This document shows, in pieces, positions 2,438 through 23,068 of a stretch of 64,000 bases of DNA. Source of the stretch: an uncultured Gammaproteobacteria bacterium. Its GTDB lineage: Bacteria; Patescibacteriota; Microgenomatia; Levybacterales; GWA1-39-11. Each line of letters starts with the position of its first letter. The stretch's first letter is position 1. The stretch is from NCBI GenBank assembly GCA_964651815.1, contig CAZYWG010000006.1, positions 23,259 to 87,258 of the forward strand, read 5' to 3'. A program made the position numbers and the translations under genes. Below the pieces are notes generated by a model. It was not told the origin of the DNA. It saw only the letters and a program-made list of their open reading frames with translations, and searched no databases.

Positions 2438-3916
2438 TTATTTTTTGTAAATTACCGCAGTTTTATCTTCAAAGATCTTCGCCCAATGGTCATATTCTAG
2501 TCGGCTTATAAATCTCGCTTTATAGTGGTTTGAATTTTGCAATAAAGATATATCAACTCCAAATACATCAATGCTAAGTGGTTTTGAATTTTTGTTTTGC
2601 CACAAAACATAATGGACATTATATTTTTTAAAAAATTTTTCGTAGCTGGCCGCGCCGCTTACTATACTCGCATAATCTTTGAATGCTGAATCGCTTTCTG
2701 AAGCGCTCGCGCGCCACTGCCAGGAAGGCATCCTTCCATCAATAAATACACGTTTTTCAGGGAGCTTCCACAATAAATATCCTCCCCAATTATAAACTGA
2801 AAAAATTTCTCCATTTATATTTTGCTTTTTTAAAAATGAAACAGCACTTTTTGGATAATATTTTTTTTCGGAAAGATCTGAATGTAAACCAATAGAATAT
2901 GTTTTACTCAAAAAAACGGCAAGTGCGTATAGCACAAAGATTAAAACGGCTTTTGAAAAACGCGCGAGCATGGCTTCATTTTTTTTAACTTCTTCCCGGA
3001 AAAATTCAAAAAAAGGCGGAACAATTATTAGTGTCGCAACTATAAAATACGGTAAGTGCCTAACGCTTGATATAACAAGTAAAAGAAGTGCCAGATAAAT
3101 AACGAGTGCTTGAAGCTTCAACTTTTTCCTATATCTAAAAATTAGAACAAAAGACAAGGCTAAAAGTATAAAAAAGGAAAGGTCAAAAAAGAAAACCCCC
3201 GGGAGCCATTCAATTATTTCCCACCTTAATGCTGAATCTGTAATTGATGAAAGTACTTCTCCCCAGAGTCGCGCGCCGTATGGATTTATAAATGTGGCAA
3301 GAATTGATCCCCCCAAAACTAAAAAATCATATCGGTCTACTCTTTTTTGGATAATTCTCAAAACAATAAATATTGATAGTAGATAGATTGCTACCGCAAA
3401 ACTTCCATGAAGATTGGCCCAAATTAAAATTAATACTGGAATTGTAATTTTCCATTTCTTCCACAGTTTTTCATTCAACAAAACTGTAAGCAAGACAGCG
3501 GCCAAAAACCAGGAAATAACCTGTATTCTTAATCCTGAAAATGAAAGAAGAATTGATGCAGCCAGAAGAAAAAATGAGGCATAATACACTTTAAATTGTT
3601 TTTTAAGTGAAAATGCAATTGCACCTATTGGGAAAGCCGCAAAGAAGAAAGAAAGAAGAAGCGGATGTATTTTGTAAAGAAAGTATATTACTACATCCGC
3701 AAGCCACTCATGATCTATGGCCGGAAAAGAAAGCATAGTATAGGAAAAAGTGTCTTTATATTGAAAACCGTGTTTTAAAGTGAGTTCTCCGAGTTTTAAG
3801 TGCCATCCAAAATCAGGATCTAGTGCAATTGTGTTGTGGATAAAAAAAACTATAAAAGAAGCAAAAACTAAACCCAAAAAAATTACTAAAGCTATCCTCC
3901 TACTATTCAAATTCAT
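2438..3916 (-). CDS. Polytopic membrane protein (about 10-12 TM) with a roughly 130-aa C-terminal soluble domain. GT-C glycosyltransferase-like architecture; function uncertain.
   Basis: Hydropathy pattern of the translation. N-terminal loop DPDFGWHLKLGE. Soluble C-terminal domain VYNWGGYLLWKLPEKRVFIDGRMPSWQW. Embedded among the pilin genes. Confidence 0.45.
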   Translation of the reverse strand: MNLNSRRIALVIFLGLVFASFIVFFIHNTIALDPDFGWHLKLGELTLKHGFQYKDTFSYTMLSFPAIDHEWLADVVIYFLYKIHPLLLSFFFAAFPIGAIAFSLKKQFKVYYASFFLLAASILLSFSGLRIQVISWFLAAVLLTVLLNEKLWKKWKITIPVLILIWANLHGSFAVAIYLLSIFIVLRIIQKRVDRYDFLVLGGSILATFINPYGARLWGEVLSSITDSALRWEIIEWLPGVFFFDLSFFILLALSFVLIFRYRKKLKLQALVIYLALLLLVISSVRHLPYFIVATLIIVPPFFEFFREEVKKNEAMLARFSKAVLIFVLYALAVFLSKTYSIGLHSDLSEKKYYPKSAVSFLKKQNINGEIFSVYNWGGYLLWKLPEKRVFIDGRMPSWQWRASASESDSAFKDYASIVSGAASYEKFFKKYNVHYVLWQNKNSKPLSIDVFGVDISLLQNSNHYKARFISRLEYDHWAKIFEDKTAVIYKK

Positions 3917-4017
3917 ATGAGCTTTATTCTACAAAAATTGTTTATGCTTTGTCTTGGTGTATTTTGCAAACTCGGAAGCACTTGACAAACTATTTCAAAC
4001 GTGCTGTAATTAAAAAT

Positions 4018-4431
4018 GTGAAAAGAATTTCAAAGTATTTAGTTCTCCTTCTCCCCCTCTTGGGTTTTATAAATGTTCCTATAGTATCAGCTAATGTTTT
4101 GTTCTCAGGTGTTAATACTGGAAGAATAAGCAATAGAATTATAAGTCCAGATCAAAGCATTGGGTCAATCGTTTCATTCGCTGTTGCATTTATTGTAGTC
4201 CTCTCGTTTCTTCTTGCACTTATTTTTATTGTTATCGGAGCAGTCCAATGGATAACATCAGGTGGTGACAAACAAAAAGTGGCGGACGCACGAAACCATA
4301 TAATTTCTGCAATTATTGGACTTATAATTGTCGCGCTCTCTTTTGTCATTGTTAACATTGTTATAACGGCGCTTGGCCTTGGATCTCTCACAAACCTCAC
4401 TATCCCAACTCTTTCGGAATTTGGCCAATAA
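4018..4431 (+). CDS. TrbC/VirB2-like pilin family protein. The GTG start at 4018 is preferred over the ORF-track start at 3949.
   Basis: Signal peptide VKRISKYLVLLLPLLGFINVPIVSA, then two TM helices around SGGDKQKVADARNHIISAIIGLII. C-terminal tail ...TLSEFGQ. TTGACA(3983)-17-TGTAAT(4006) lies just upstream of the GTG, so the longer 3949 start would sit upstream of the promoter. Confidence 0.5.
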   Translation: MKRISKYLVLLLPLLGFINVPIVSANVLFSGVNTGRISNRIISPDQSIGSIVSFAVAFIVVLSFLLALIFIVIGAVQWITSGGDKQKVADARNHIISAIIGLIIVALSFVIVNIVITALGLGSLTNLTIPTLSEFGQ

Positions 4432-4474: not shown

Positions 4475-4798
4475 ATGAATGATTTTATTCCAACCTCTGA
4501 TTGGTCAAGCTGTTTGAGCAATGGGGACGTTGCCACTCTATCTTGTATTCCTATAGTTCTTCAAAATATTATTAATTTTCTTGTTCTTTTTGCAGGTATT
4601 GCGTGTGTTTTTATAATAATTTTTGCAGGTTTTAAATTCGTAACGTCAGAAGGAGACCCTGAAAAAGTTGCACTTGCAAGAAAAACCGCGATGTATGGAA
4701 TTGGAGGATTTTTATTGGTACTTGCGTCTTTTGTTCTTGTAACAATGATTTCTAAGTTTACGGGAGTCACCCAAATCGCACCAAAAAACATCCCTTAA
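4475..4798 (+). CDS. TrbC/VirB2-like pilin family protein
   Basis: Two TM helices around SEGDPEKVALARKTAMYGIGGFLLV. No classical cleavable signal peptide. A -10-like taaaat sits about 9 nt upstream of the ATG. Confidence 0.5.
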   Translation: MNDFIPTSDWSSCLSNGDVATLSCIPIVLQNIINFLVLFAGIACVFIIIFAGFKFVTSEGDPEKVALARKTAMYGIGGFLLVLASFVLVTMISKFTGVTQIAPKNIP

Positions 4799-5854: not shown

Positions 5855-8800
5855 TTATAGCGCTTCTCCTTCGTCTTTAAATCTATCTATAACTGCTAAT
5901 AAAGCATTTTCCATTTCAGTTACCTTTACATCTCCTGTATCCATTTGATCTTTGAGAATATCTAAAAATGTTTCAAAATTCGGTGTTATGAGTGGGCTAA
6001 AGGGTGTTCCGAATAAAGGTTCATTCATGATCTCCATAAGCCTATCTGGCGTAATAATGGAGCTTACTTTTTTGAAATATTCTTCTCGATCATTTCTATC
6101 CTTATATTTAAGCATTACATCAAGAAATTCATAGTATCCTCTCGGAGGTTTTTCCGGCGGATCCCTAAAGGTAACATCGCGTTCCGAAGGAGTGTAAGTT
6201 GTATAATCCGGATCCGTAGGATTAATTTTTGTATTTTTTGTAAATTCGTCCTTTTTTTCAAAAATCTCGTATCTTCTATCCATTATTCTGTCGAAGTTCT
6301 TTAAAAGATCGCTAGTTACTTCGATTTGCTTTATCTCACCACTCAAATCTACCTTGCCAATTTCATCCTCTTGTATCTTTATCTTACCGTCAAATTCTTT
6401 TTCTAATCTCTCTCCGGCTTGCGCCCTTGAATCAAACTTGATCATTGCAAACTTTACCGCATCATTAATTTCAGAATCTGAAGGAACGGGAGGCGGTGGA
6501 GTCCCAAGCACTGGCGCGCGCTTATCAAGCATTGCCTTAATCTCCGCAAAAGACATAGTTCTAAGCTCTTCGTCAGTTAAAGCCCAAGTTGGCTCATCGG
6601 TTAATTTTTTGAAATTACTTTCTAGATCTGCTTTTCTTGGAGTAGAACTTTCAATCCTCCGCCCTCTTGCCTCAATCATGGCATTAATTACCTTGTTGCG
6701 GATATCATCTTTATCGTTCTGTTCTTTTTTCCAACCCGCCGGAAGAACATTAACTAGATCCATTATTTGATCTATATCATTTGTTCTAAGCTGTGCGTCT
6801 GATAATCCAATTGCCCGTAGTTCTCTGTATGCCTTGGTGTAGCCTTCGGTGGTTGTCTTTATTTCTGTGAATCTTGAACCTTCCTCTTTGAGGTTGACTC
6901 TTTGCTCATCAATTTTATCAAGTACCTCTTGAAGTCTGTTTTTCTCTGTTAAGACTTTGTTTACATCTTCCTGAATTTTAGCAGCTTTTCGGGCGACCTC
7001 GCTGTCAATATTTTCTCTTGCTAATCGAAGTCTTTCACTAAAATGTTCCGCTTCTTCATCAGTTCGCTTTATAACACGACCTGCGATTTCCTCGTACTGT
7101 TCTTCTTGCCATGTTTCTAACTCTAAGTTTCGTTGTTTAGTAGATTTGATTCTATCCCCATTTATAATTACCTCTGTGCCAATTCCATTTATTACGTCGT
7201 CTAATCCTGACATTGCCCCTTCAATACTCGTAAACCGACCGGCAAAATTTCTTACGACCTCTTTTGTAGCTCTGGTACGTATTTCCTCTATCGCTTTTCT
7301 CCCCTTATTGTATTCTTCGATTGTTGTCTTCCCAGCATCTATAGACCCTCTATCTCTTTTATATAGATCTCTATTTGTTTCAAAGTCTTTAACTCTTGCT
7401 TTATAAACAGTCGCTTCTTCTCCCTTACTCTTATCTCTTGCTTTTATTTTCTCTTCCCATCTTGATGCTCCCGGCAAAGATGTTTTCTTCTGCTCAATAA
7501 TATACTTTTTAAGCTGGTCCATTGCCACGTCTAATCTCGCTTTTTCAAATCTCTCTCTGTTGCCATGGTAATCAAGCGTTGCTAGACCTGTTAGAAAAGC
7601 GGGATTGTTAATCCATGAATTGGTGGCATCATCAAACACTTTACGCGTCCGCCCTAATGTGTCTCGTATTCCGTCTTCGTCTGCATTAAATTTTTCGGCT
7701 ATTTCTTCCATGTATCTAACTGCTGTTTTTTCCGGATAGCCTTTCCTCCCATCAGAATTGTAAAGAAATCCGATTGCAAGAGCATCTGCTCCGGCCCTAT
7801 CCGCGTGAATATCCTTCATGAATTCCATCCTTGCCTTAATTCTTGCGTCAATATCGTGTCTAAGTTGTTTTTGATTAGCTTCACTCGCACCGGGCGAAGG
7901 ATTAAGAACGTTAATTCCCGACATTAGTCTTACGTATTTAATGCGATCTGGGCTTGATTTAATATATTCAAGTGCTTTTTTTGATTCATGTGAATCAGGT
8001 TTTTTATAATCTCTTGAAACACCTTTTCCAACTGCAAGTGCAATTGCCTCAGCTGCTGTCGGAGCAAAACCTAACGTCGCGGCAGCTAAAGCAGGCGCCA
8101 TACCAAGAGTTGCAACTCCTAATCCTCCTGCTAACGCTGCTCCTGCTCCGACAAGTAGTACTCCTGTCTGAAGTCTATTTTGGTCATTAAATCTTGATAG
8201 ATATGGATAAGGTATGCTTAATGGACCAATTTTCTTTGAACCTATTGCCGGAACAATAGGAACATTGGGCAATCTGATTGATCCTAATATTGCTACCTCA
8301 CCTTTTCTACCATCATAAGAAGCAGTAGGTTCAGAAAGAAATTCCTGGGCTTTTCTAGCTGGATATCCAAGAGGTCCTTCTCTCATTCCAAGTGGCGTTT
8401 GATCTCTCGGCTCTGTGCCGATATCTTCAGTTGGCCCAGGATTAGTTTCCGGTATTAACCCTAGTGCAGACGAATCAACTTCCGTCTGACGCCCCATCAT
8501 AATGTCAGTAATCACGTAACCCCTAGGACTGTTTAGAAACTCGTCAACACTTTTCTCAAGGTCATTTATATCTGCGTCCTCAAATTCAACCTTAAGGGCA
8601 CCAGTATCTGTTTTTCCGGCAAGTATCCCGTAAACTTCACGGTCTAAATCATCCATTAATTCAGGGGCGTCTTTTTTTACTTTTGACAAGCGGTCCTTAA
8701 TGTGGTCTGTCATGAAGCGTCTATATTTATCCCGAGTGTCCCGGCTGAGATCCGTCCAAGGGTTCCGTTCTTTTCTTTGCCCACCACTTCTATCTCTCAT

Positions 8801-8956
8801 CTCTTCCCCAGTTCCTCGCTCACTTACAAAAGAAGATATACGAAATTGAGTATCGTCTCGATTGAGCTCTCGTTTTGAAAGCTTGGTATTTTTATTGGAA
8901 GTTTTTGATTCACCTTCACCTGCTGTCTTTTCTAACGCGGCATCCGATACAGACAT
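5855..8956 (-). CDS. Large (1033 aa) charged, coiled-coil-rich protein with a central Gly/Ala-rich hydrophobic hairpin. No recognisable family.
   Basis: Long uninterrupted ORF. Residues about 264-311 read TGVLLVGAGAALAGGLGVATLGMAPALAAATLGFAPTAAEAIALAVGKG (nt about 8024..8167), flanked by highly charged K/E/R/D-rich sequence with heptad-like stretches. No P-loop. Confidence 0.6.
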   Translation of the reverse strand: MSVSDAALEKTAGEGESKTSNKNTKLSKRELNRDDTQFRISSFVSERGTGEEMRDRSGGQRKERNPWTDLSRDTRDKYRRFMTDHIKDRLSKVKKDAPELMDDLDREVYGILAGKTDTGALKVEFEDADINDLEKSVDEFLNSPRGYVITDIMMGRQTEVDSSALGLIPETNPGPTEDIGTEPRDQTPLGMREGPLGYPARKAQEFLSEPTASYDGRKGEVAILGSIRLPNVPIVPAIGSKKIGPLSIPYPYLSRFNDQNRLQTGVLLVGAGAALAGGLGVATLGMAPALAAATLGFAPTAAEAIALAVGKGVSRDYKKPDSHESKKALEYIKSSPDRIKYVRLMSGINVLNPSPGASEANQKQLRHDIDARIKARMEFMKDIHADRAGADALAIGFLYNSDGRKGYPEKTAVRYMEEIAEKFNADEDGIRDTLGRTRKVFDDATNSWINNPAFLTGLATLDYHGNRERFEKARLDVAMDQLKKYIIEQKKTSLPGASRWEEKIKARDKSKGEEATVYKARVKDFETNRDLYKRDRGSIDAGKTTIEEYNKGRKAIEEIRTRATKEVVRNFAGRFTSIEGAMSGLDDVINGIGTEVIINGDRIKSTKQRNLELETWQEEQYEEIAGRVIKRTDEEAEHFSERLRLARENIDSEVARKAAKIQEDVNKVLTEKNRLQEVLDKIDEQRVNLKEEGSRFTEIKTTTEGYTKAYRELRAIGLSDAQLRTNDIDQIMDLVNVLPAGWKKEQNDKDDIRNKVINAMIEARGRRIESSTPRKADLESNFKKLTDEPTWALTDEELRTMSFAEIKAMLDKRAPVLGTPPPPVPSDSEINDAVKFAMIKFDSRAQAGERLEKEFDGKIKIQEDEIGKVDLSGEIKQIEVTSDLLKNFDRIMDRRYEIFEKKDEFTKNTKINPTDPDYTTYTPSERDVTFRDPPEKPPRGYYEFLDVMLKYKDRNDREEYFKKVSSIITPDRLMEIMNEPLFGTPFSPLITPNFETFLDILKDQMDTGDVKVTEMENALLAVIDRFKDEGEAL

Positions 8957-9006: not shown

Positions 9007-10353
9007 ATGGTTGGAGAAGGACCGCAGCCTAGTGTTGCAGAAACAGGCGCAATCGCTACTGCTGATCGACCAAATAACGCACCCGCCGCTGGGCCTACCG
9101 TTCAGATTGAAAATCCAAGCAGCTCTCCCACAAACCCTTATTTAGATGGTGAAGAAGCAGAAGTAAAAGGAGCACCAAAGCCAAATGTCGCAAGTGAGGA
9201 AGAAGATCAGGAACCTGCAATAGAATCAGGCCCATCAAGAAGAATTCAAACAAAAGAGCTTCATGAGCTTGCAGACACCAATATAAATATCGCGGGTAAA
9301 CAAATTAAGGACAAAATAAACAAAGCGCCAACGAAAAAAGAGGGCGTGGCTTCCTTATCCACAGCAGAAAAAGAACTTTATTCGTTGTTTACAATAAGAG
9401 GTTGGAAGGAAAGTGACGGAGATTTGGAATTTGTAAGAGAAGATAGCAAAGGACATAAATCCGGCACGCCGCTTAATATTGAAGGAGTTGGACTAATTAC
9501 TAAATTCAGAGTACTAGAAGGAGGTAAATTAAAAGTTCATATTAGTGGATCAGACAGTGAAGTAGAGGTTGATCGCGCTCGGGTAGAAGAAGCACAACTT
9601 CTCTCTCATAAAAATGACATTTTGAATAATTTTTCGGGGAGCAGAAGAGAAATTGAAGAAATTGAGATTAATTCGATTGAACATCCCGGAGCGGATATTT
9701 TTGGTGGTAAGACTAATGCAGACATAAATAGTCTCATTGAATCCGCCGCAGACGAAGCTTCTTACCCGACAACAGGCGATATCAGAACCTATGTTAGTGG
9801 GATGCCAGATAGCCCGCAGAAACAAGAATTACTCACCATGCTTTCTGGAAGTAATCTTCCATCATCAGAAATTATTGATAAGGTTTATGTTGGCGCAAAT
9901 ACTGATAAAGCACTTGTTGATCTGCGTGCAGATGTTAAGAGATTACAGGAAACAGTAAATAATAACAAAGGAAATAAAGAAGCAATAAGAAGTCTTGATG
10001 TTGCTCAGAGATATTTGAAGTTATATACGGATGCTGAAGCAAAATTACAATCGGGAGGTTCACAAGAAATAATTAACAAAATTTCTGCCGGACAAATTGA
10101 TATTGAAAAATCCAAGGCAATAAAAAATGCACTTAGGACAGGACGTATGGATGCCCTTATTCCTCTTCTCGCTAAGGATCTGCAGGATGACCCAGATAAT
10201 GATTCACCTGAAGTGCTTGCTGACAAAGCGGAAAAGAGACGCGAGCTAAAGAAAAAAATGGAGACAATGAGTTGGTTTGCGCTTGCTGCCTTGCTTTTAT
10301 CCGGTATGGCTGTTGGAAAACTTGGTGAAGGCGTTGTTGGCGGCGGTAGATAA
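9007..10353 (+). CDS. Acidic hypothetical protein (448 aa) with a single C-terminal TM anchor (tail-anchored)
   Basis: Ala/Pro/Glu-rich N-terminus. Ends in MSWFALAALLLSGMAVGKLGEGVVGGGR. First gene of the plus-strand operon that leads into VirB4. Confidence 0.5.
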   Translation: MVGEGPQPSVAETGAIATADRPNNAPAAGPTVQIENPSSSPTNPYLDGEEAEVKGAPKPNVASEEEDQEPAIESGPSRRIQTKELHELADTNINIAGKQIKDKINKAPTKKEGVASLSTAEKELYSLFTIRGWKESDGDLEFVREDSKGHKSGTPLNIEGVGLITKFRVLEGGKLKVHISGSDSEVEVDRARVEEAQLLSHKNDILNNFSGSRREIEEIEINSIEHPGADIFGGKTNADINSLIESAADEASYPTTGDIRTYVSGMPDSPQKQELLTMLSGSNLPSSEIIDKVYVGANTDKALVDLRADVKRLQETVNNNKGNKEAIRSLDVAQRYLKLYTDAEAKLQSGGSQEIINKISAGQIDIEKSKAIKNALRTGRMDALIPLLAKDLQDDPDNDSPEVLADKAEKRRELKKKMETMSWFALAALLLSGMAVGKLGEGVVGGGR

Positions 10354-10511: not shown

Positions 10512-11738
10512 ATGGAAAATCATCCTATACCACAAGACGTTACAGGCTTTAAATTTAAGCTGATTGGTAGCATGACTGTCAAACAGTTTTTATATCTATT
10601 AGGGTTTGGTATTTTGAGTATGATCTTTCTTATTTTCCACATGAATTTATTTATAAAAGTCCCTATCATGACCGTACTTGGGTGCATTGGAATATTTCTT
10701 GCATTTATTCCAATTGAAGGGCGTCCAGCGGACATTATGATAATGAATTTTGCAAAAGCAATTCCTTCTGAAAACAGGTACATTTTTAAAAAACGCGGCG
10801 TCAATTTGGCGAACTATGAAGCTTTCAAAATAATTGTCAAAAAGCCAGTTCCAGCGTCAGCAGCACCTGGGACGCAACCGTCTACACCAAAAAGTGTTTC
10901 TGATGATAAACGGGCAATTTTGATTTCGCGTCTTCGCAACTCTTCTTTCAGGCCTGATGATTCGGAAATTAAACAACTTAACAACATTAAAGCTATTTTT
11001 GATACAGATAGTAGTGCTACCCCACAAACGCAAATTTTTGTAAGTGAGCAAAAAAATAAACCAATGGTAGCAATACACGCCGACGAACCAAAAGTTGAAA
11101 TAACCAATGCTGTCTCCGCAGCGGCGCCAATTATACTTTCCTCTCCCGTGCCACAGGTAGCTGTGCATGAAATTAAGCCGCCCGAAGAAAAAAAAGCTGA
11201 TATGCCGGCAGAAAATCCGTCACTCCAAGCGGCAAAACCCGCTGCAAGCGAACAACCAGCGCAGCAAGAAGCGCCAAGACAAGAAATTCCACAGCCTCAA
11301 ATTAAACTTTCTGACAATGAAGAAAAAACACACTCTACCCCTCCCCCCGTGGCTATTGGCCAAGTATCTGCGCCTAATCTTGCCGGAGGATTCCCCACCC
11401 TTCCCGATGTTGGAAATGTAGTTCTTGGAATGGTTCGTGACGCTCGCGGCCGTACACTACCAAACATTTTGGTTGAGGTGGTGGACGACAACAATATTCC
11501 AGTGCGCGCTTTTAAAACAAACGCTTTAGGACAATTTGCTTCTGCTACCCCACTACCTGATGGCGTTTACAAAATACATTTTGAAGACCCGCAGAAAAAT
11601 CAGGAATTTGAAATTGTTGACATCAACCTTAGTGGCGAAATTTTTCAACCCATAGAAGCAGTTTCGGTTGACGCCCGAGAAAAATTAAGGCGCGAGCTTT
11701 TTGGCACTCAACCCGCAGCGCCAAGCTCAGTAGTATAA
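10512..11738 (+). CDS. PrgI/VirB3-like two-TM membrane protein with a long Pro-rich linker and a C-terminal prealbumin/carboxypeptidase-regulatory-like beta-sandwich domain
   Basis: N-terminus FKFKLIGSMTVKQFLYLLGFGILSMIFLIF...VPIMTVLGCIGIFLAFIPIEG resembles the small VirB3/PrgI component that precedes VirB4 genes. C-terminus GNVVLGMVRDARGRTLPNILVEVVDDNNIPVRAFKTNALGQFASATPLPDGVYKIHFE resembles CarboxypepD_reg-like folds. Confidence 0.45.
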   Translation: MENHPIPQDVTGFKFKLIGSMTVKQFLYLLGFGILSMIFLIFHMNLFIKVPIMTVLGCIGIFLAFIPIEGRPADIMIMNFAKAIPSENRYIFKKRGVNLANYEAFKIIVKKPVPASAAPGTQPSTPKSVSDDKRAILISRLRNSSFRPDDSEIKQLNNIKAIFDTDSSATPQTQIFVSEQKNKPMVAIHADEPKVEITNAVSAAAPIILSSPVPQVAVHEIKPPEEKKADMPAENPSLQAAKPAASEQPAQQEAPRQEIPQPQIKLSDNEEKTHSTPPPVAIGQVSAPNLAGGFPTLPDVGNVVLGMVRDARGRTLPNILVEVVDDNNIPVRAFKTNALGQFASATPLPDGVYKIHFEDPQKNQEFEIVDINLSGEIFQPIEAVSVDAREKLRRELFGTQPAAPSSVV

Positions 11739-12403: not shown

Positions 12404-12480
12404 TTCGAAACCCGAAACAAGTTTTAAAAATTAAAAAATTAGAATTTGTTTCGAATTTCGATATTCGAATTTCGAATTTT
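12404..12480. repeat. Imperfect inverted repeat plus tandem tcgaattt units between the two VirB4 ORFs
   Basis: ttcgaaacccgaaacaa (12404-12420) pairs with ttgtttcgaatttcgat (12446-12462) at 14 of 17 positions, around a 25-nt A/T loop. Followed by tcgaattt at 12451, 12465 and 12473. Confidence 0.5.
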
Positions 12481-12481
12481 T

Positions 12482-14782
12482 ATGTTGGGCTTTGGGAAAA
12501 AAACAAAACAAATTCAAAATGAAGCACCTCAACAGGTATTGAGTGCCGCGGGCGAACCTACTGTGGCGCCACAAGTCCAACCAACAATTGTTGTAAAGGC
12601 CGGGACAAAAGGCAAAAAAGCAGCTGGACAAAGCTCGCATCCGCAAAACGTGCAAAGTAAAGGGTATGCTGCTCTTTCTCAAGGGGCTGTTTCTGTAGTT
12701 GACATTATTTCCCCGTCGTCAGTTGAAGTTGATTTTAAAAATATTCGCGTTGGAAATAAATTTTTCAGGACTTTTTTTGTTGTTGATTATCCACGGCAAG
12801 TATCTCCCAACTGGCTTTCAATACTCATCGACTACAAAGAGACTATGAACATTTCAATGTTCTCATACCCCGTTGAGAGCAAAGACGTATTAACAAATTT
12901 AAGAAGAAAAATTTCTGAGATGGAAGCAACGCTTCAATCAGACGCTGAGCAAGGACTTGAACCGGACCCTAAGACTAGCGCCGGGCTGGAAGATGCAATC
13001 GCTTTGCGAGAAGAACTGGCACGTGGGCTTGAGCGATTTTTCCAATTCGGTTTATATATCACTTTGGCCGCTGAAACTGTTGAAGAACTTGACTCAAAAA
13101 CCAAAGAGCTAACTTCTCTTCTTGCGTCAAACCTTTTACTTATTAAACCCGCAACTCTCCAAATGGAAGACGGATTCAAAACTACGTTGCCAGGCGGCGT
13201 TGACAAACTTTTTATAACTCGCAACATGGATACAACTTCTCTTGCTTCAACTTTTCCTTTCACGTCTTATGAAATATCACACCCTAATGGAATCCTGTAT
13301 GGAGTCAACACAATAAATAATTCACTTGCGATTGTGGACCGTTTTTCTTTTGAAAATGCAAATGAGGTAGTCTTTGGAAAGTCAGGTGCCGGAAAATCTT
13401 TCCTGGTAAAACTTGAAATACTTCGCCAAATGATGTTTGACGCGGAGATTTTGATTATCGACCCAGAAGATGAATATAGAGCTCTTTGCCACGCGCTTGA
13501 CGGCGAATACATTAATTTTTCAAAGGACTCTGACATTAAAATTAACCCATTTGCGCTAATTTCTGAAGACATGACAGACGCGCAACTTGGAATAAAAATC
13601 TTATCACTTCACGGGCTTCTCAAAACCATGCTTGGGGAGATGACGCCAACTCAAGAAGCAATTCTCGATAGGTCTCTTGTATTATGTTATAAGCAAAAAG
13701 GGATAACTCCGGACCCCGCAACTTACAGACAAGAACCACCAATTCTTGAAGATCTTTACAAAACTCTTCTTAACATGGAAGAACCCGAAGCAAAAGATCT
13801 TTCATTCAGGCTCGAAAAATATGTGAAAGGTGGTTTCTCAGGTCTTTTTAATCAACAAACAAATTATGATGTTAAAAACCAACTAACTGTTTTTTCAATA
13901 AAACAACTTGAAGACGCGCTCCGTCCAATTGCTATGCATGTAATTTTGGATTTTATCTGGAACCGCGTCAGGACAAAGCTTAAAAAAAGAATACTGGTAG
14001 TTGATGAGGCGTGGTATCTAATGCAACACCCTGATTCTGCAAGTTTTTTGCAAGGAATTGCCAAACGGGCAAGAAAATATTTCCTTGGAGTAACTACTCT
14101 TACTCAAGATATTGAAGACTTTCTCAATAACGATTATGGAAAATCCATTTTATCTAATTCCTCAGTTCAAATTCTTTTAAAACAGAATTCTTCAGAAGTT
14201 GAAACCCTGGCAAAAGCGCTATTTTTATCGGAAGGAGAAAAACAATTTCTAGTGACGGCACAAGTTGGAGAAGGGCTTTTGTTTGCCGGGCAAAATCACA
14301 TAACCGCTCAGTTTGTGGCATCAAATTCAGAATATGAACTAATTACTTCAAAGCCACAAGATATATTAAGAAATGAACAGGACGCGGAAAATATTCAGGC
14401 GGCACAATTGGCTTCCGCGCAAGCTAATCCGCCTCAACCCACAGAACAAACACAAGCGCCGCCACCTCCACCAGAACAACCAATGCAACCTCAACAGCCT
14501 ACGGCAATACCAGTGGTACCTACCCAAAGCGTGCCGACACAAGATCCTGAAAACATCACAGTTGTTCCACAGCAAATCCAGACACCAGTACAACCTGCTG
14601 TAACACAGCAACCAATCACACAAATACCTACAGTGAGTGTACCCCAGCCAGGTACCATCCCGGCAGCACCAATTGCTTCTTTCAATCAAGCTCTCCCTAC
14701 AGCGCCCCCTGTAGCGCCACAACCCCCGATTGTTCCTACGGAAAACGTTCAGCCCCCTACAAATCCCACTGGGAGCGCATAA
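12482..14782 (+). CDS. virB4: VirB4/TrbE/CagE-family type IV secretion ATPase (ATG at 12482 preferred; ORF-track TTG at 12446)
   Basis: N-terminal region IISPSSVEVDFKNIRVGNKFFRTFFVVDYPRQVSPNWLSILIDY..MNISMFSYP. Walker A FGKSGAGKSF (nt 13375-13398). Walker B ILVVDEAWYLMQ. About 140-aa Pro/Gln-rich C-terminal extension. Confidence 0.8.
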   Translation: MLGFGKKTKQIQNEAPQQVLSAAGEPTVAPQVQPTIVVKAGTKGKKAAGQSSHPQNVQSKGYAALSQGAVSVVDIISPSSVEVDFKNIRVGNKFFRTFFVVDYPRQVSPNWLSILIDYKETMNISMFSYPVESKDVLTNLRRKISEMEATLQSDAEQGLEPDPKTSAGLEDAIALREELARGLERFFQFGLYITLAAETVEELDSKTKELTSLLASNLLLIKPATLQMEDGFKTTLPGGVDKLFITRNMDTTSLASTFPFTSYEISHPNGILYGVNTINNSLAIVDRFSFENANEVVFGKSGAGKSFLVKLEILRQMMFDAEILIIDPEDEYRALCHALDGEYINFSKDSDIKINPFALISEDMTDAQLGIKILSLHGLLKTMLGEMTPTQEAILDRSLVLCYKQKGITPDPATYRQEPPILEDLYKTLLNMEEPEAKDLSFRLEKYVKGGFSGLFNQQTNYDVKNQLTVFSIKQLEDALRPIAMHVILDFIWNRVRTKLKKRILVVDEAWYLMQHPDSASFLQGIAKRARKYFLGVTTLTQDIEDFLNNDYGKSILSNSSVQILLKQNSSEVETLAKALFLSEGEKQFLVTAQVGEGLLFAGQNHITAQFVASNSEYELITSKPQDILRNEQDAENIQAAQLASAQANPPQPTEQTQAPPPPPEQPMQPQQPTAIPVVPTQSVPTQDPENITVVPQQIQTPVQPAVTQQPITQIPTVSVPQPGTIPAAPIASFNQALPTAPPVAPQPPIVPTENVQPPTNPTGSA

Positions 14783-14789
14783 ATAAAAT

Positions 14790-17312
14790 ATGGACAACAC
14801 TGCTCAAGAGGGTAATTCAAAAAAATCCTCAGAATCAACTAAGGGCGTAATTATTTCAGGACTTGTATATGGACCGTCTAATGCGGGATCAAATGAAAAC
14901 GTTGCGCTCGGCGGAATAACAATAAGAATACAAGGTGCTTCGCGCGCGACAGATTCCCAAGACGTAACTTCTGGCGAGACAGGCGAATTTTCCTCAAGAC
15001 TACTTTCCCCGGGAAAATATAAAGTTACGCCTATTGATTCAAAAGCAATATATTTCCGTCCCCCACTGACAATTCCAGTAAACAATGATACCCCCCTCGA
15101 AATATACATGACGCCTGCTGGAACACCTAACCGCAGACGAGGCAACCATCACTCTTTTATGCCAATTATTAAAAACAACATTTACGGATTTCTTGTTGAG
15201 AGGCAAAAAAAACCAATCGCAAATATCGACGTGAGTGTTAAAAGCGTAACGCTCGATCCGGCAAAAAGTAATAAGGGCCTAATTGAAAAACTCGCAAGTT
15301 TTGTTTCAAGAAAGAATGCTACAGAAAACGAAGAAGGTAAAAATAAAGAGCCCGAACCAATTTCTATAATACTTAAAACAAACGCGCTAGGATCATTTGC
15401 TGTGAGGCAACGTTTGCCGAATGGGGCTTACATAGTTAAGTGTATAGATCCTTCCAAAAAATATACTTTTAGATCCAGATTTATGGTACTTAAAGGGTAC
15501 TACCTTCCACCTCTTTGGTTTACGGGTTATACAACATCAGACCTTGATGAATTAAAAAAGAAACACCAGGAAAGAAAAGATAAAGCACCTGAAGAGGAGA
15601 AAGACAAGGAGGCAGAAGAATCGACAACATCAAAAAAAGGTGGTACAGAAAGTGAAGATGCCAAAAATAAGGAGGGGCTAGAAGAAGGCGATGGAAAAAA
15701 AGCAGCTGATGAAGCTGCAAGAATAATCCATGAAAATCAGGCACCTTCTAAGCCACCCAAAACCGGAGGGAGTTTGAAGCCTGATGAAAGCCCAACTGGC
15801 GCTACTCCCGAAACAAAACGGGAAACCATAAGTCGAAGTGCTACTGGAACAGCGACTCTTGAGCGACCCCAAACGGAACTTCAACCAAATTTGAGGGATT
15901 ATCCTCAACCAACTTCCTTTCCTGCCATTGAAACAATAGTTCGGCCGCCACAATTTGATGAACCATCGATCCCCCAACAATCAAGCGAACAACAAAGAAC
16001 ACAGAGCGCTCAAAATGCACAAAGCGCTCAAGGAAATAGACAAAGACGATCTTCTGTTAGATCGCCGAGAATTCCAAACCCTGCAAAAAATGCAGCAAGC
16101 CAAGCGGCTCGAGGTGGAGAGAAAGAAGTTTTAAATGCTATAAATACTGCTACCGCGCCTGTTCAATCTGTCTTAAAAAAATATTTAATAGGGGCAGCAA
16201 TTATCATAATTCTTCTTATCATAATCATTCAATTTTTCGGCCCAGAGTCTCCCGCCTCCCCTTTCAGCAGTGGTGAGACGAGCGCAAATCCGGGCAATCC
16301 GGGCAATCCGACAAATCCAAACCCAGGCAACCCAGGGGTGAATACAGGCGGAGGGCTTGATTATGCAATCCTTATAAATGACCCGACCATTTTACCTGAC
16401 AATATAAAACAAACTATTGCATCAAATTGGCCAAACGCCCTGCTTCAAAATTTAGATAATATAGTATCCACTGCAAAGTCTCACAACTGGAACCCATCCT
16501 TCCTTTTGTCCCTGTGGATCGAAGAATCTGGAGGGCAAGCTGGCACGAGCAATGCGGATGGCAACCCAAATGGATACACAGATGCTCTTGGATGTGACCC
16601 TCAGCACCCCACAAGCAACATAAATTCATCTCTTACTTGTTTTTTTAATCAGTATGGATCTTATACAAAAAGTTTTGCCGACTTTATGTGTAATTACAGC
16701 GAAAGTAAAGATGCCCCTTGTACTTTTTCTACCAATCCGAATTTTCCTGGATCAATTAAATCCGTTTATGCAACGCTTGTTCCAAATGGTCCAGGGGCGG
16801 AAATAAATATTACTCCAACAACAACCCCCGGCGGCGGATCAGTTACTGCAACCTGCCCCATACGGGGGGGTATAATAACTTGTGGAAGCAAGTTCAATAC
16901 TGTTAATAATTGTGGACATTGCAACCCAAACACAGACTATGCATCCGATATGGATCAATGTACTTATAACGGAATAAATTACGCGGAGGACGTTGGGGCT
17001 TCCGCAGGAACAAACGTAATACTGCCGAGTCTTAATGGCGAGTCTATAATCTGGAACTTTTACAACGAGCAGCAGTCGGGTATTGGATCAACCATTATGT
17101 ATAAAGGGAATGACTCACATGATATTACTTATGTAATTGAATTTCATCACGTTGCAGGGGGAAGCAGTGTGAAACGCGGTCTTTCAGGAGATATTGGAGC
17201 AAAAACATGCACTGGGGACTCCCGCTGTAATCATGTTCATATTGAATTTTACAAACTGCCTGCAACAGGAGTACAAGATTATGTAGATGCGTCTAAAACT
17301 TTTTGCCAATGA
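14790..17312 (+). CDS. Membrane-anchored peptidoglycan hydrolase: two prealbumin-like N-terminal domains, a charged linker, one TM, an SLT-like lytic transglycosylase region and a C-terminal M23 (LytM) peptidase domain
   Basis: TM helix KKYLIGAAIIIILLIIIIQFF. SLT-like LLSLWIEESGGQAG...YTDALGCDPQ. M23 signature YVIEFHHVAGGSSVKRGLSGDIGAKTCTGDSRCNHVHIEF (HxH...E). NPGNPGNP tandem linker at about 16260-16330. Follows virB4 by 8 nt. Confidence 0.65.
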   Translation: MDNTAQEGNSKKSSESTKGVIISGLVYGPSNAGSNENVALGGITIRIQGASRATDSQDVTSGETGEFSSRLLSPGKYKVTPIDSKAIYFRPPLTIPVNNDTPLEIYMTPAGTPNRRRGNHHSFMPIIKNNIYGFLVERQKKPIANIDVSVKSVTLDPAKSNKGLIEKLASFVSRKNATENEEGKNKEPEPISIILKTNALGSFAVRQRLPNGAYIVKCIDPSKKYTFRSRFMVLKGYYLPPLWFTGYTTSDLDELKKKHQERKDKAPEEEKDKEAEESTTSKKGGTESEDAKNKEGLEEGDGKKAADEAARIIHENQAPSKPPKTGGSLKPDESPTGATPETKRETISRSATGTATLERPQTELQPNLRDYPQPTSFPAIETIVRPPQFDEPSIPQQSSEQQRTQSAQNAQSAQGNRQRRSSVRSPRIPNPAKNAASQAARGGEKEVLNAINTATAPVQSVLKKYLIGAAIIIILLIIIIQFFGPESPASPFSSGETSANPGNPGNPTNPNPGNPGVNTGGGLDYAILINDPTILPDNIKQTIASNWPNALLQNLDNIVSTAKSHNWNPSFLLSLWIEESGGQAGTSNADGNPNGYTDALGCDPQHPTSNINSSLTCFFNQYGSYTKSFADFMCNYSESKDAPCTFSTNPNFPGSIKSVYATLVPNGPGAEINITPTTTPGGGSVTATCPIRGGIITCGSKFNTVNNCGHCNPNTDYASDMDQCTYNGINYAEDVGASAGTNVILPSLNGESIIWNFYNEQQSGIGSTIMYKGNDSHDITYVIEFHHVAGGSSVKRGLSGDIGAKTCTGDSRCNHVHIEFYKLPATGVQDYVDASKTFCQ

Positions 17313-17827
17313 AAATAAATTTTAAAACTGAATATTTATTTATAATTCTCATAATTATTCTCATTCCTGTTTTTGTTTGGCTTATTGCTGCAAGGTTTTC
17401 ATCAAACACTTCAAATAATACTTCTACTGATAAGGCATTAACATCATCAACGCCAACTCCTGTCTATGTCGTTCCTACCGGCCTATCCAAAAATAAAGTA
17501 TTAGCGGTAACGCATACGCTCCCAATTGATGATACAGGTATTACATATCAACCTATTCAACCCATTGAATTTTCTTTTAATAATTCCGTAGATGCGGCAG
17601 GAATTAAGTATTCTGTTAATCCTAAAATAGATGTAGTTGTAAAAAATGGATCTTATGCAAACAAAGTGTTAATTTATCCTGCGGTTAAATGGAATGAAGG
17701 AATAACAACTATTACAATTCTCCCGGGTAGTAGTGCTCTTGATGGCACCAAGCTTTATATTCCTTTTACTTACGAACTAAATACAGCGCAACCAACTGTG
17801 CCACCTCATAGCCCTGGAGCTTATTAA
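17303..17827 (+). CDS. Small N-terminally membrane-anchored hypothetical protein (174 aa)
   Basis: ATGA overlap with the preceding hydrolase stop. TM helix LFIILIIILIPVFVWLIAA followed by an S/T-rich linker. Confidence 0.4.
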   Translation: MPMKINFKTEYLFIILIIILIPVFVWLIAARFSSNTSNNTSTDKALTSSTPTPVYVVPTGLSKNKVLAVTHTLPIDDTGITYQPIQPIEFSFNNSVDAAGIKYSVNPKIDVVVKNGSYANKVLIYPAVKWNEGITTITILPGSSALDGTKLYIPFTYELNTAQPTVPPHSPGAY

Positions 17828-18929: not shown

Positions 18930-19061
18930 ATATTATTTGTAATAGTAGTAGCAGTAGTATATGTGGAGAAGTGGAATAAAGCAAGAACGCGTGCGTGAGA
19001 AAATGTGGAAAACCGGGTGATAACTTTGTGTATAGCTTGTTGATAAGTAATATTCGTCATT
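18930..19061. promoter_or_regulatory. dnaA-dnaN intergenic region with two 8/9 DnaA-box-like motifs (candidate oriC segment)
   Basis: tgtggagaa at 18962-18970 and tgtggaaaa at 19014-19022, against the consensus TGTGGATAA. An agtagtagcagtagta A/T-rich trinucleotide run lies at 18943-18958. Confidence 0.4.
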
Positions 19062-20396: not shown

Positions 20397-20443
20397 AAAG
20401 AGGCATAAAATGAGCAGAAAAAATTAGTACCAAAGTATACGAA

Positions 20444-20500
20444 TGTGGATAACTTTTTGTCAAGAGTCGTTTTATTGCTATACTCTATCAATATGGATAA
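20444..20500. promoter_or_regulatory. DnaA boxes upstream of dnaA (candidate oriC / autoregulatory region)
   Basis: Perfect TGTGGATAA at 20444-20452 and an 8/9 box tatggataa at 20492-20500. Confidence 0.5.
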
Positions 20501-20648
20501 TTTTGAAGAAATAAGCGGAGACGTTAGGAGTGTCTTGAATATGCCTCTTCAGAATTGTCCAAAATGCGGAGAGATAATTGGTGCATTTTCAGGAGGACGC
20601 GACGCCGTCTGCCAAAACTGCGGCTATAAAGACCCTTGCTGCGAATGA
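20493..20648 (+). CDS. Small zinc-ribbon protein (about 51 aa; the ORF track alternative starts at 20445)
   Basis: CPKCGEIIGAFSGGRDAVCQNCG, a CxxC...CxxC motif. Both candidate ATGs overlap the DnaA boxes, so it is uncertain whether this is a real gene. Confidence 0.3.
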   Translation: MDNFEEISGDVRSVLNMPLQNCPKCGEIIGAFSGGRDAVCQNCGYKDPCCE

Positions 20649-20674
20649 TTTAGTCTTAGACTATAATATGATTT

Positions 20675-23068
20675 ATGAGAATAGGTTTTTTCACAGACGG
20701 ATTTTTACCTCAGCCAAATGGCGTTGCAACATCAGTTTCTGAGACTGCTTATGAGTTAGAACGGCGGGGACATGAAGTATATATTATTGCTCCCAAATAT
20801 CCTGGATTTGTTGACCAAAACCCGCACGTTATAAGACTTACCTCTTTTAGCATACATAAGCCTACAAAAACACGGTTTGTTTTAAGTCTTCCGGATAAGT
20901 CATTGCGTAAAATTCTCTCAATGGATTTTGACATAATTCATGGGCATAGCGGGGGTTCTGTAACGCTACTCGGGTGGGAGATTTCACGCGCCAAAAAGAT
21001 TCCTTTTGTTGCAACCTATCATACGCTTTGGAATAGGTATACACACTATTTTTTGAAAGGAAAAGTTGTTACTCCAAAAATGATGGAACAAGCAACTAAA
21101 ATTTTTGGAAACAGGGTGGATTTTTTGATCGCGCCAACTCCCCGCGTTGAAAAAGAATTAACACGCTACGGCGTTAAACGTCCCATAAAGGTAGTGCCTT
21201 CTGGAATTGACGTAGAAAAATTTAAAAATGCAAAGCCGGGGTTTTTAAGAACCAAATTGCGCCTTTCTGAAAACACACCAATCCTTTTATATGTGGGGAG
21301 GCTTGGGCACGAGAAATCGGTCGATTTCATTTTGAGAAGTTTTAAAAAAATTGTAGAACACGATTCAAGCACTCATTTTGTAATTGTGGGGGACGGCGTT
21401 GATAGGAAAAAGCTTGAAGCGCTTAGCCGCCGCCTGAAGGTCTCAGAAAATACCCATTTTTTTGGAGATGTAAAAAGTACCGATATCCAAAAAGTTTATG
21501 CAGACGCAACAGTTTTTGTATTTGCCTCAACAACAGAGACGCAGGGGCTTGTTGTGCCTGAAGCGCTTGCCGCAGGCGTCCCTGTTGTCACAATTGATGA
21601 CCCGGCTTTTGAATGTGTTGAAAATGGGAAAAACGGATACAGGGTTGGAGAAAATGAAGAGGAATTTGCTCTGAAAACGCTTTCAATAATAGAGAACAAG
21701 GATTTAAGAGCAGAGCTTTCAAGGTATGCAAGTCAAAGCGCTGAAAATTTGTCTGTCAAAAAAACAGTAGATAGTCTTGAGCAGATTTATTTTTCTCTTT
21801 TTGAGAAAAGTAACAAAGAAAGTGTCGCGCGTATAATGTCAACAAATGCAAGAAATGAAGCAGTATTTAGTATTTCAGCCACATTTTGGGTAACAGTTAT
21901 CTTGACGCGTCTTTTGACTCTCTTAAACCACAATAATTTATATCCTAAAATAAATATGTTTAATCAATCTTTTTACCAATCAACGGCCGGTTTTATATTA
22001 ATTCTTTTATTTCTTGCACTTTTTGTGCGCAGACGCAACATTAGCGGTTTGTCGGTTCTAGCACTCGGGGTGGGCGCCGGGCTCGTTTTAAATGAAGCAT
22101 GGTCTATTATTTTTAGCCATGCGGTTTATCTTGATTATTGGAATATATTTAATTTTCTCCCGATATTTTTGGCTGGAATTCTCCCGGTGCTTTTCTTCCA
22201 TGACAAAGTAAATGACAGGCCAAAGTTTTATATAGGGACACGCCAGTTAAAGCATATAAATCCTGAAAAGCCGCGAGTCACGGTTGTTGTCCCTGCATAT
22301 AACGAAGCGGAATTTATTGTGCCTACTCTCAAAAGCTTAATTAACCAAACTTATCAGGAATTTGAACTAATAGTAGTTGATAACAATTCAACGGATTCTA
22401 CGGCTGAAGTTGCCGCTGAATATGGTGCTCGTGTGGTCGTTCAAAAAATAAAAGGGGTGGCGGCGGCCAGGCAAGCTGGGTTTTTTGAAGCGAAAGGCGA
22501 AATAATTGTGTCTACAGACGCAGATTCTGTCATTCCGGAAAACTGGCTCGAGCAAATTATTAAAAGATATGATCAAAATGAAAATCTTGTTGGATTTGGA
22601 GGCCTAAGCCTTTTATACTCGGGCGCCGTGTCGGCCCGCGCTGCGGGACGCTATTTATTCCCTCTTTTTTGGCAAGTAGATAAAATTCTCTCAGGCGGTT
22701 GGAATATGGCTGGGTTTAATATGTCTGTCAGGAAAAATGCATTCTTAAAAATTGGTGGATTTAACGCCGACCTTAAAATGGGAGAAGACATAGACCTTTC
22801 GCAGAACCTTAGAAAGGTTGGGACTGTTGAAATAGATCCAGAGCTTATTGCTTATGCCTCAGGACGCCGGTTTGCAGATGGTCTTACCCCGGGCCTTATG
22901 ATATACGGTCCGTGGTGGGTATCAAAAGTTATACTGAGGCGGGAAAAGCCGTTTGAGTTCCCAGCAGTTAGAAGCGAAAAATCAAAAAATTCAGCTACTG
23001 GCTTTTTGCCAATTTCATTTGCAATAGTGCTGCTCTCCTTAATGTTCTATATAGCAAATGCAATTTAA
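20675..23068 (+). CDS. Bifunctional glycosyltransferase: N-terminal GT4 (GT-B) domain, central TM segments, C-terminal GT2 (GT-A) domain
   Basis: N-terminus MRIGFFTDGFLPQPNGVATSV and ...TETQGLVVPEALAAGVPVV (GT4). C-terminus VTVVVPAYNEAEFIVPTLKSLINQ..ELIVVDNNSTDST and STDADSV (GT2 DxD). Four or five TM helices between the two domains. Confidence 0.75.
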   Translation: MRIGFFTDGFLPQPNGVATSVSETAYELERRGHEVYIIAPKYPGFVDQNPHVIRLTSFSIHKPTKTRFVLSLPDKSLRKILSMDFDIIHGHSGGSVTLLGWEISRAKKIPFVATYHTLWNRYTHYFLKGKVVTPKMMEQATKIFGNRVDFLIAPTPRVEKELTRYGVKRPIKVVPSGIDVEKFKNAKPGFLRTKLRLSENTPILLYVGRLGHEKSVDFILRSFKKIVEHDSSTHFVIVGDGVDRKKLEALSRRLKVSENTHFFGDVKSTDIQKVYADATVFVFASTTETQGLVVPEALAAGVPVVTIDDPAFECVENGKNGYRVGENEEEFALKTLSIIENKDLRAELSRYASQSAENLSVKKTVDSLEQIYFSLFEKSNKESVARIMSTNARNEAVFSISATFWVTVILTRLLTLLNHNNLYPKINMFNQSFYQSTAGFILILLFLALFVRRRNISGLSVLALGVGAGLVLNEAWSIIFSHAVYLDYWNIFNFLPIFLAGILPVLFFHDKVNDRPKFYIGTRQLKHINPEKPRVTVVVPAYNEAEFIVPTLKSLINQTYQEFELIVVDNNSTDSTAEVAAEYGARVVVQKIKGVAAARQAGFFEAKGEIIVSTDADSVIPENWLEQIIKRYDQNENLVGFGGLSLLYSGAVSARAAGRYLFPLFWQVDKILSGGWNMAGFNMSVRKNAFLKIGGFNADLKMGEDIDLSQNLRKVGTVEIDPELIAYASGRRFADGLTPGLMIYGPWWVSKVILRREKPFEFPAVRSEKSKNSATGFLPISFAIVLLSLMFYIANAI

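Follow-up and report, generated by a model that had tools for sequence, protein, structure and literature searches.

Type IV secretion systems (T4SSs) of the Patescibacteria resemble the mating-pair-formation class MPF-FATA, include TrsD homologues, and, in Microgenomatia and Paceibacteria, lie near dnaA; outside Paceibacteria, VirB1 homologues show little association with virB4 (PMC12102498). CPR (Candidate Phyla Radiation) bacteria are obligate epibionts, and their T4SSs are without a relaxase and in most cases without a linked coupling protein (PMC12102498, PMC10633639). The system has pilins and is essential for epibiotic growth in the sole genetically tractable member; a 2025 survey detected VirB1-type hydrolases close to virB4 in Paceibacteria only. 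The locus considered here lies in a 64,000-nucleotide stretch (the window) of contig CAZYWG010000006.1, assembly GCA_964651815.1, whose lineage is Patescibacteriota, Microgenomatia, Levybacterales. Directly after virB4 this locus encodes an 840-aa protein that is probably the peptidoglycan hydrolase of a chromosomal, oriC-proximal MPF-FATA-like T4SS, an analogue of VirB1, PrgK, TraG, TcpG, and CwlT. This functional class is assigned because of the folds given by two independent structure predictions, conserved residues, domain swaps, and synteny with virB4. The identical protein is deposited without a name in public collections (NCBI, Logan).

The DELTA-class hydrolase PrgK of Enterococcus faecalis pCF10 is, like the 840-aa protein, encoded directly after a VirB4 homologue. 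In PrgK a long intracellular N-terminal region and one transmembrane (TM) helix are combined with glycosidase and LytM-fold domains outside the cell, the layout predicted for the 840-aa protein, and the glycosidase of each has its structural relatives among phage tail enzymes, phi29 gp13 for one (PMC11323569). The order of the domains differs, being LytM, muramidase, and CHAP in PrgK, but glycosidase and M23-like domain, with no CHAP, in the 840-aa protein; the LytM domain of PrgK is without metal motifs, whereas the His/Asp set is conserved in the protein described here; the N-terminal domain of PrgK is not the tandem transthyretin-like module found here; and no sequence similarity between the two proteins is detectable. 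TcpG of pCW3 is a T4SS hydrolase with a FlgJ-type domain.

In Southlakia epibionticum, the genes after virB4 are SEML1_0007, with a DD-peptidase fold, and SEML1_0006, in which GH73, phage-tail lysozyme, and Cys-protease domains are combined; next come genes for a small Ig-like protein that is exported and for a prealbumin-like one (PMC10633639); SEML1_0006 and SEML1_0007 are both essential by transposon sequencing (PMC10633639, PMC12102498). These two genes share the locus position of the 840-aa protein, in an order of PrgI, a gene in the TrsD position, VirB4, hydrolase(s), Ig-like protein, and dnaN/dnaA. SEML1_0006, compared here by position and description, has a GH73 Glucosaminidase domain, and the 840-aa protein has a GH73-like one. 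Southlakia differs in using two separate genes instead of one protein, in having a peptidase of Hedgehog/DD-peptidase (M15-like) fold plus a Cys-protease domain instead of an M23-like domain, and in carrying its prealbumin-like domain in a separate gene, SEML1_0004, instead of fused to the hydrolase.

A further point of comparison is phi29 gp13 (PDB 3csq), in which an N-terminal lysozyme-like glycosidase is likewise followed by a C-terminal M23/LytM endopeptidase. It aligns with the full two-domain model of the 840-aa protein over 332 Foldseek columns (E=1.4e-3), at a low TM-score because the relative orientation of the domains differs. Unlike the 840-aa protein, gp13 is a soluble virion protein that acts from outside and has neither a TM helix nor N-terminal modules; its H(x)7D spacing is non-standard (PMC9662197).

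The preliminary description of this DNA, made from the sequence alone, had placed an SLT-like segment around the string LWIEESGG. The string is present (aa 575-582), but the fold around it, as judged from the structural model, is lysozyme-like, either GH73-like or generic lysozyme-like, rather than SLT. For aa 520-672, a dedicated AlphaFold2 (AF2) model built from 54 sequences reaches a predicted local distance difference test score (pLDDT) of 90.2 and a predicted TM-score (pTM) of 0.87. Its best Foldseek matches in the PDB are the glycoside hydrolase family 73 (GH73) enzymes SagB, Ecd09610, LytB, and AtlE (probability 0.87-0.96, TM-score 0.50-0.56); goose-type (g-type) lysozymes come next at a TM-score of about 0.5, and lytic transglycosylases match more weakly, with MltE, Slt35, MltF, and EtgA giving TM-scores of 0.2-0.44 and probabilities <0.25. 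The top matches in BFVD are phage peptidoglycan hydrolases and glucosaminidases, among them gp183 of phage G (E=8e-4, TM-score 0.61), and all named top neighbours in the two databases are peptidoglycan glycosidases, GH73 leading (probability up to 0.96-1.0, TM-score 0.5-0.61). The isolated domain also gives a weak match to the Glucosaminidase (GH73) profile PF01832 (E=0.008 and 17.2 bits, the cut-off being 30.2), which spans positions 4-117 of the 123 in the profile and recurs in 3 of 54 domain members. No profile of the SLT family (PF01464 and relatives) matches, at E<=1-10, the full protein, the middle domain in isolation, or any of the 54 homologues of that domain. The SLT (GH23) reading was dropped, with GH73 structures nearest and PF01832 the only weak profile match; SLT_3 was matched in one distant relative of 50 (E=3e-5).

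Residues of this domain are nearly invariant among 105 relatives: E578 is found in 101, E579 in 103, S/T580 in 104, G581 in about 104, G601 in 104, and C602 in 102. The E579-S/T580-G581 stretch resembles LESGWG of FlgJ, although hhalign finds no significant alignment that ties the two. By eye, LWIEESGGQ is similar to AALESGWGQ of FlgJ, and TNPNFPGSIK to TDPHYARKL; the GH73 enzymes that match best in structure (SagB, AtlE, LytB, FlgJ) differ from the family, which adds a Glu (EE) and carries four conserved Cys. With its likeness to GH73 the enzyme could be a glucosaminidase, a muramidase, or a lytic transglycosylase.

The C-terminal domain, which the preliminary description had called LytM/M23 on the strength of HVHIEF (aa 815-820), has that string, a predicted M23/LytM fold, and most of the motif residues; what it does not have is a profile match. 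Peptidase_M23 (PF01551) scores 12.7-15 bits on it, with E=0.15 to 0.029 and the cut-off at 28.7, and among 48 family members all 48 fall under the cut-off and two give any match (best E=0.016). An AF2 model of aa 520-840 has a pLDDT of 80-90 in the C-terminal beta domain, and its top ~30 Foldseek matches in the PDB are M23/LytM structures (probability 0.9-1.0), including StM23, lysostaphin, EnvC, ShyA, Csd1/2, DipM, zoocin A, and EnpA; phi29 gp13 and a cyanophage A4 pre-ejectosome protein are matched over the full length of both domains. The fold and the conservation of its motifs together support the M23/LytM assignment.

M23 peptidases are defined by H(x)nD and HxH motifs, with n typically 3, but 7 in gp13 and 12 in LasA, and by a further catalytic His about 30 residues ahead of HxH (PMC9662197). 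In the present family H710 is conserved in 81, D734 in 82, H787 in 82, H815 in 80, and H817 in 81 of 85 relatives. The domain profile was aligned by hhalign with lysostaphin and LytM and, separately, with 22 canonical M23 domains taken from relatives (E~1e-3 in both runs); D734 falls on the zinc-ligand Asp (lysostaphin D36), H787 on the His of xHL, and H815-V-H817 on HxH (lysostaphin H113-L-H115), with H787 28 residues ahead of H815. With lysostaphin, LytM, and LasA the domain shares HxH, a G-T-x-V stretch after the zinc-ligand Asp, and the catalytic His; it differs from them by an added Cys-rich N-terminal segment of about 45 residues. The sole invariant His upstream of D734 is H710, which lies in the CGHC motif of this segment, 23 residues before the Asp. 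It may replace the missing first zinc-ligand His, giving H(x)23D, and Cys of the added segment could possibly take part at the zinc site, which would make the domain a new M23 subtype. The catalytic-residue conservation that the preliminary description had made a test of its reading is borne out in both domains, the candidate E578/E579 and His/Asp set being nearly invariant; the lack of an SLT or Peptidase_M23 profile match, which it had named as grounds against itself, is also what is found, none being at threshold.

A word-indexed search finds only eight relatives of the protein; an exhaustive profile search gives at least 584 cluster representatives (50% identity) at E<=1e-3, of which 148 are at E<=1e-30. 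Among the best 154 representatives, 33 have both domains, 69 the middle domain only, and 52 the C-terminal domain only; in most of these relatives an N-terminal region of 200-560 aa is followed by a single TM helix. Across such divergent sequences the pattern of conservation is that of active sites. The C-terminal domain is also exchanged among relatives. P0089 has an N-terminal module, TM helix, and glycosidase like those of the 840-aa protein but ends in a canonical PF01551 domain (65 bits), and in a sample of 50 relatives that have the glycosidase domain without a CGHC-type domain, canonical M23 is found in 19, CHAP in four, Peptidase_C39_2 in four, and YkuD in two. A glycan-cutter with exchangeable peptide-cutters is, on these domain assignments, the signature of multidomain wall hydrolases. 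The taxonomy of the family rests on the literature and on one genome match, a metagenome-assembled genome (MAG) of Candidatus Levyibacteriota; a narrow-pattern genome scan gave three loci.

Other arrangements of the modules were seen in passing. Relatives such as P0008 (L002, 7395..8669) keep the CGHC-type M23-like domain and have another helical domain in place of the GH73-like one; SLT-like motifs can be picked out in it by eye (AMHENLSF, GLMQI, ERYYNS), and this domain goes undetected by Pfam. The modules are divided among genes in L007 (4963..8480), a locus of a Ca. Levyibacteriota MAG, where VirB4 is followed by genes of 814, 155, and 199 aa, the last of which is the CGHC-type M23-like domain alone; a small protein and dnaN/dnaA come after it.

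Gene order ties the family to the T4SS. The order of T4SS_pilin genes, PrgI (often with a CarboxypepD_reg fusion), TrsD/TraC-like protein, VirB4, hydrolase, small TM protein, and then dnaN and dnaA on the minus strand recurs across every locus examined; each of the 13 informative loci has VirB4 directly upstream of the family member, and the VirB4 proteins are as little as ~50% identical; dnaN is downstream in ten. In the window 7 nt separate the end of virB4 from the hydrolase open reading frame (ORF) on the same strand, with no terminator-like site found after virB4 on the plus strand, an operon layout that bears out the proposed co-transcription with virB4. The ATG of the next gene overlaps the stop codon of the hydrolase gene as ATGA, and the two are translationally coupled.

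The layout of the protein itself (Table 1) is largely as the preliminary description had it: the 840-aa ORF with its ATG start, the single TM helix seen in hydropathy, and the NPGNPG linker, which in the DNA is a 9-nt tandem repeat at 16287-16310 (Tandem Repeats Finder). The linker of ~210 aa ahead of the TM helix had been called acidic; in 40-aa blocks it is instead a mixed-charge Lys/Glu-rich part followed by a Pro/Gln/Ser/Thr-rich part.

Table 1. Features of the hydrolase gene and its T4SS neighbours (window coordinates; aa, residues of the respective product).
Feature	Position	Strand	Basis
Hydrolase ORF, 840 aa, ATG start	14790..17312	+	ORF list, translation
D1, transthyretin/CarboxypepD_reg-like beta-sandwich, aa ~19-110, predicted cytoplasmic	14844..15119	+	PF13620, joint profile
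D2, second CarboxypepD_reg-like domain, aa ~128-247, with Lys/Glu-rich insertion	15171..15530	+	BLASTP, alignment
Low-complexity linker, aa 248-460, predicted cytoplasmic and disordered	15531..16169	+	composition in 40-aa blocks
Single TM helix, aa 464-484, predicted N-in/C-out	16179..16241	+	hydropathy, flank charges (N-side +2/0, C-side 0/-2)
Predicted extracytoplasmic Gly/Pro/Asn-rich tether, aa 485-520, including NPGNPG repeat	16242..16349	+	translation
Lysozyme-like (GH73-like) glycosidase domain, aa 521-665, four Cys	16350..16784	+	AF2, Foldseek, weak PF01832, conservation
Candidate catalytic E578/E579	codons 16521-16526	+	conservation
Divergent M23/LytM-fold domain, aa 687-840, Cys-rich N-terminal segment (CP..TCGS..CGHC)	16848..17309	+	AF2, Foldseek, hhalign, conservation
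Candidate active site: H710	16917-16919	+	
Candidate active site: D734	16989-16991	+	
Candidate active site: H787	17148-17150	+	
Candidate active site: H815	17232-17234	+	
Candidate active site: H817	17238-17240	+	
virB4 (CD1110-type conjugal ATPase), directly upstream, same operon	12446..14782	+	NCBIfam NF045971, 408.6 bits
PrgI/VirB3-like protein: TM hairpin aa 26-68, linker, CarboxypepD_reg-like domain aa ~304-385	10512..11738	+	PF12666 27.9 bits, PF13620 26.4 bits
TrsD/TraC-like (VirB4 N-domain-like) protein, 213 aa	11747..12388	+	NCBIfam TrsD E=1e-4; PF26593 TraC-like in syntenic genes
Small conserved 172-aa protein with membrane anchor (TM), Pro/Thr linker, and beta domain	17309..17827	+	sequence, alignment

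The N-terminal half carries two prealbumin-like (CarboxypepD_reg-like) domains, as had been proposed from the sequence, and several comparisons support both. D1 matches PF13620 below the gathering cut-off (E=2.3e-5; 25.1 bits against 32.3), and between the core of D2 and aa 334-381 at the C-terminus of the PrgI-like protein there is 40% identity (BLASTP, E=5e-7), which substantiates the claim that the module recurs there. The PrgI C-terminal domain itself scores 26.4-30.2 bits against PF13620, and 7 of 12 member domains match that profile, with E down to 5.5e-7. D1 and D2 show no similarity in direct pairwise comparison; a joint alignment of D1, D2, and the PrgI C-terminal domains reveals common invariant Gly, Phe, Tyr, and Asp positions, and the joint profile matches the transthyretin-like domains of NOMO2 (E=8e-14), SdrD (4e-10), and carboxypeptidase M (1e-3). 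Within the hydrolases the module is found in a subfamily (P0117, P0154, and P0089 by local phmmer among family representatives), and the N-terminal 250 aa drew no match in a word-indexed homologue search; the fusion to PrgI, also present in L001, L002, L004, and L010, is more widespread than the hydrolase version. The linker of the PrgI/VirB3-like protein is ~230 aa long and Pro/Gln/Ala-rich, and its C-terminal domain has a conserved DAREKLRRELFG tail.

The N-terminal 460 aa of the hydrolase are inferred to be cytoplasmic because no signal peptide is seen at the N-terminus in hydropathy, the TM flank charges are +2 on the N-side and -2 on the C-side, 12 of the 13 Cys are C-terminal of the TM helix (an even number in each outer domain), and the hydrolase domains are necessarily outside. 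The PrgI-like protein is predicted to be an N-in/C-in hairpin, positively charged at either flank, and its copy of the module is therefore placed in the cytoplasm too. A role of the module at the surface or in binding the host wall, as initially suggested, conflicts with this topology and was dropped; binding of a partner, the other half of that suggestion, is compatible with it, on the cytoplasmic side. The preferred, speculative view is that the transthyretin-like modules serve for cytoplasmic docking at the VirB3/VirB4 complex.

Several results weigh against the assignment of the protein as an active two-domain hydrolase. No curated profile (SLT, Glucosaminidase, Peptidase_M23) matches at threshold, and scans of the full protein and each domain with Pfam, NCBIfam, and PHROGs give nothing above it. 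The middle-domain profile has an hhalign probability <1% against the GH73 domain of E. coli FlgJ, and among PDB sequences it finds no lysozyme, its match being a spurious one to HORMA (E=0.004) over a Cys-rich stretch; the C-terminal-domain profile finds only SpoIIQ (E=2.2) and no active M23 enzyme; and the two-domain profile has a probability <1% against phi29 gp13. The full protein has no phmmer match among PDB sequences, and the A1 profile matches only through a TM/Gly-rich artefact. The hhalign probability against canonical M23 domains is ~21% in both runs, and the column of the canonical first His (D-4) is taken by N730, which is variable. The Foldseek E-values are modest (1e-3 to 5e-2) and are for predicted structures. 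The LytM domain of PrgK is catalytically dead, so an M23 fold alone is not proof of activity (PMC11323569). The joint reading of domains and topology also places transthyretin-like modules inside the cell. Such domains are unusual in the cytoplasm.

The variable N730 bears most directly on the idea that the LytM-fold domain is non-enzymatic, as in EnvC, NlpD, DipM, and PrgK, and controls the glycosidase, which would be the sole cutter. Degenerate LytM domains (EnvC, DipM, Csd2, SpoIIQ) are among the structural and sequence matches, and the degenerate LytM domain of PrgK down-regulates its muramidase (PMC11323569). This idea is nonetheless unlikely: D734, H787, H815, and H817, as well as H710, are kept in very divergent relatives (80-82 of 85 for the first four), other relatives have a canonical, Pfam-matched M23 domain in the same position, and the M23 family tolerates variable H-to-D spacing (PMC9662197). 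A further alternative concerns the target rather than the chemistry, in that the whole enzyme, or a C-terminal half released by cleavage of the tether, would attack host peptidoglycan at the contact site and admit the pilus or channel. The obligate epibiotic life of CPR bacteria and a relaxase-less T4SS suggest a host-directed function (PMC12102498, PMC10633639), the closest two-domain structural analogues are phage entry enzymes, which degrade a target cell's wall from its outer side (phi29 gp13, the cyanophage A4 pre-ejectosome protein, phage G gp183), and processing could take place in the flexible NPG-rich tether; but the membrane anchor and the ~35-residue tether are like those of PrgK, which reaches its own wall only (PMC11323569), no immunity gene was recognised beside it, and its architecture fits the cis-acting hydrolases of Gram-positive T4SSs, which leaves an offensive role improbable. 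Least credible is a general autolysin for wall remodelling or division that is oriC-proximal by chance and has no link to the T4SS. Combinations of M23 and glycosidase domains are common among autolysins (PMC9662197), and the locus is among the core genes dnaA and dnaN, but co-orientation next to virB4 in 13 of 13 loci, the 7-nt gap to virB4 and the stop/start overlap with the next gene, the domain that one subfamily shares with the PrgI/VirB3-like protein, and the Southlakia positional counterparts inside an essential T4SS block all speak against it.

The assignment as a wall-breaching hydrolase of a Gram-positive-type T4SS, similar to PrgK and CwlT, which was the core idea of the preliminary description, holds on folds, conservation, swaps, and synteny. 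In the mechanism proposed for it, the N-terminus would stay in the cytoplasm while the TM helix anchors the enzyme beside the VirB3/VirB4 inner-membrane complex, and the ~35-residue Gly/Pro/Asn tether would give the two catalytic domains, stabilised by disulfides, access to the cell's own peptidoglycan. With the glycosidase cutting the glycan strands there and the zinc endopeptidase severing the peptide cross-links, a gap would open locally in the wall for the channel and a VirB2-like pilus. The zinc site would probably be formed by D734 and H817, with H710 standing in for the canonical first His, and H787 and H815 would be the catalytic pair. The transthyretin-like domains probably dock the hydrolase to the cytoplasmic face (VirB4, TrsD, or PrgI), and such docking, more speculatively, would confine lysis to sites of assembly.

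The family plausibly supplies the "missing VirB1" of the Microgenomatia-type Patescibacteria T4SS. The wider combination, in which a widespread missing VirB1, an M23 subtype with a relocated ligand, and a cytoplasmic docking module shared with VirB3 all hold together, is tentative and rather doubtful as a whole; if true, the docking module would physically couple wall lysis to VirB3/VirB4, a targeting of T4SS hydrolases not described in other systems. In kind, the protein is an expected accessory enzyme of a Gram-positive-type T4SS, and the novelty is in the detail of divergent domains and a non-canonical first ligand. The family is large and invisible to Pfam and NCBIfam, so that its recognition would improve CPR genome annotation; it also offers a concrete enzyme for study and a candidate handle for blocking T4SS assembly.

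Among the neighbouring products, VirB4 of the window has a Pro/Gln-rich C-terminal tail of ~140 aa past the ATPase match (aa 636-778). The 172-aa protein encoded after the hydrolase has no family match, and its homologues follow the hydrolase in nine other loci; it has a beta-rich part of ~110 aa and corresponds in position to the exported PEGA/Ig-like SEML1_0005 of Southlakia. It was also considered as a PrgL/VirB8-like (NTF2) protein, which its TM helix, Pro/Thr linker, and beta-rich Ig-like pattern do not support.

At the other end of the locus, a Trans_reg_C regulator (174..623) precedes four T4SS_pilin (PF18895) genes on the plus strand (658..2100, 2102..2428, 3949..4431, and 4475..4798), among whose products is a 480-aa protein with 13 Cys and a C-terminal pilin domain. 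A minus-strand gene among them (2438..3916) encodes a 492-aa protein with about eight predicted TM helices and no Pfam match, which has a 483-aa counterpart in L001 and is a candidate for the VirB6-like channel subunit; such a subunit is reported to be scarce in Microgenomatia. Between the pilin genes and prgI lie two divergent ORFs without family matches, of 1033 aa with one TM helix (5855..8956, minus strand) and 448 aa with none (9007..10353, plus strand), both missing from the syntenic L001.

Downstream, DnaA-box-like sites occur at 18962, 19004, and 19038 in the dnaN-dnaA intergenic region (18930..19061), and upstream of dnaA (20397..20674) a perfect TTATCCACA at 20444 is accompanied by a further site at 20492. 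Their placement suggests that the origin flanks dnaA; over the whole window such sites number 27 against a chance expectation of 17 +/- 4.5, a count taken as not above chance. The T4SS operon, on the plus strand, converges on dnaN, and its transcription would therefore be head-on to a leftward fork. An Rfam search of the window found no family, tRNA included, at the gathering threshold. Immediately past the putative origin, the 797-aa product of 20675..23068 (plus strand) joins a GT4 glycosyltransferase that resembles monoglucosyl-diacylglycerol synthase to a GT2 glycosyltransferase, and L009 has a GT4 gene in the matching position.

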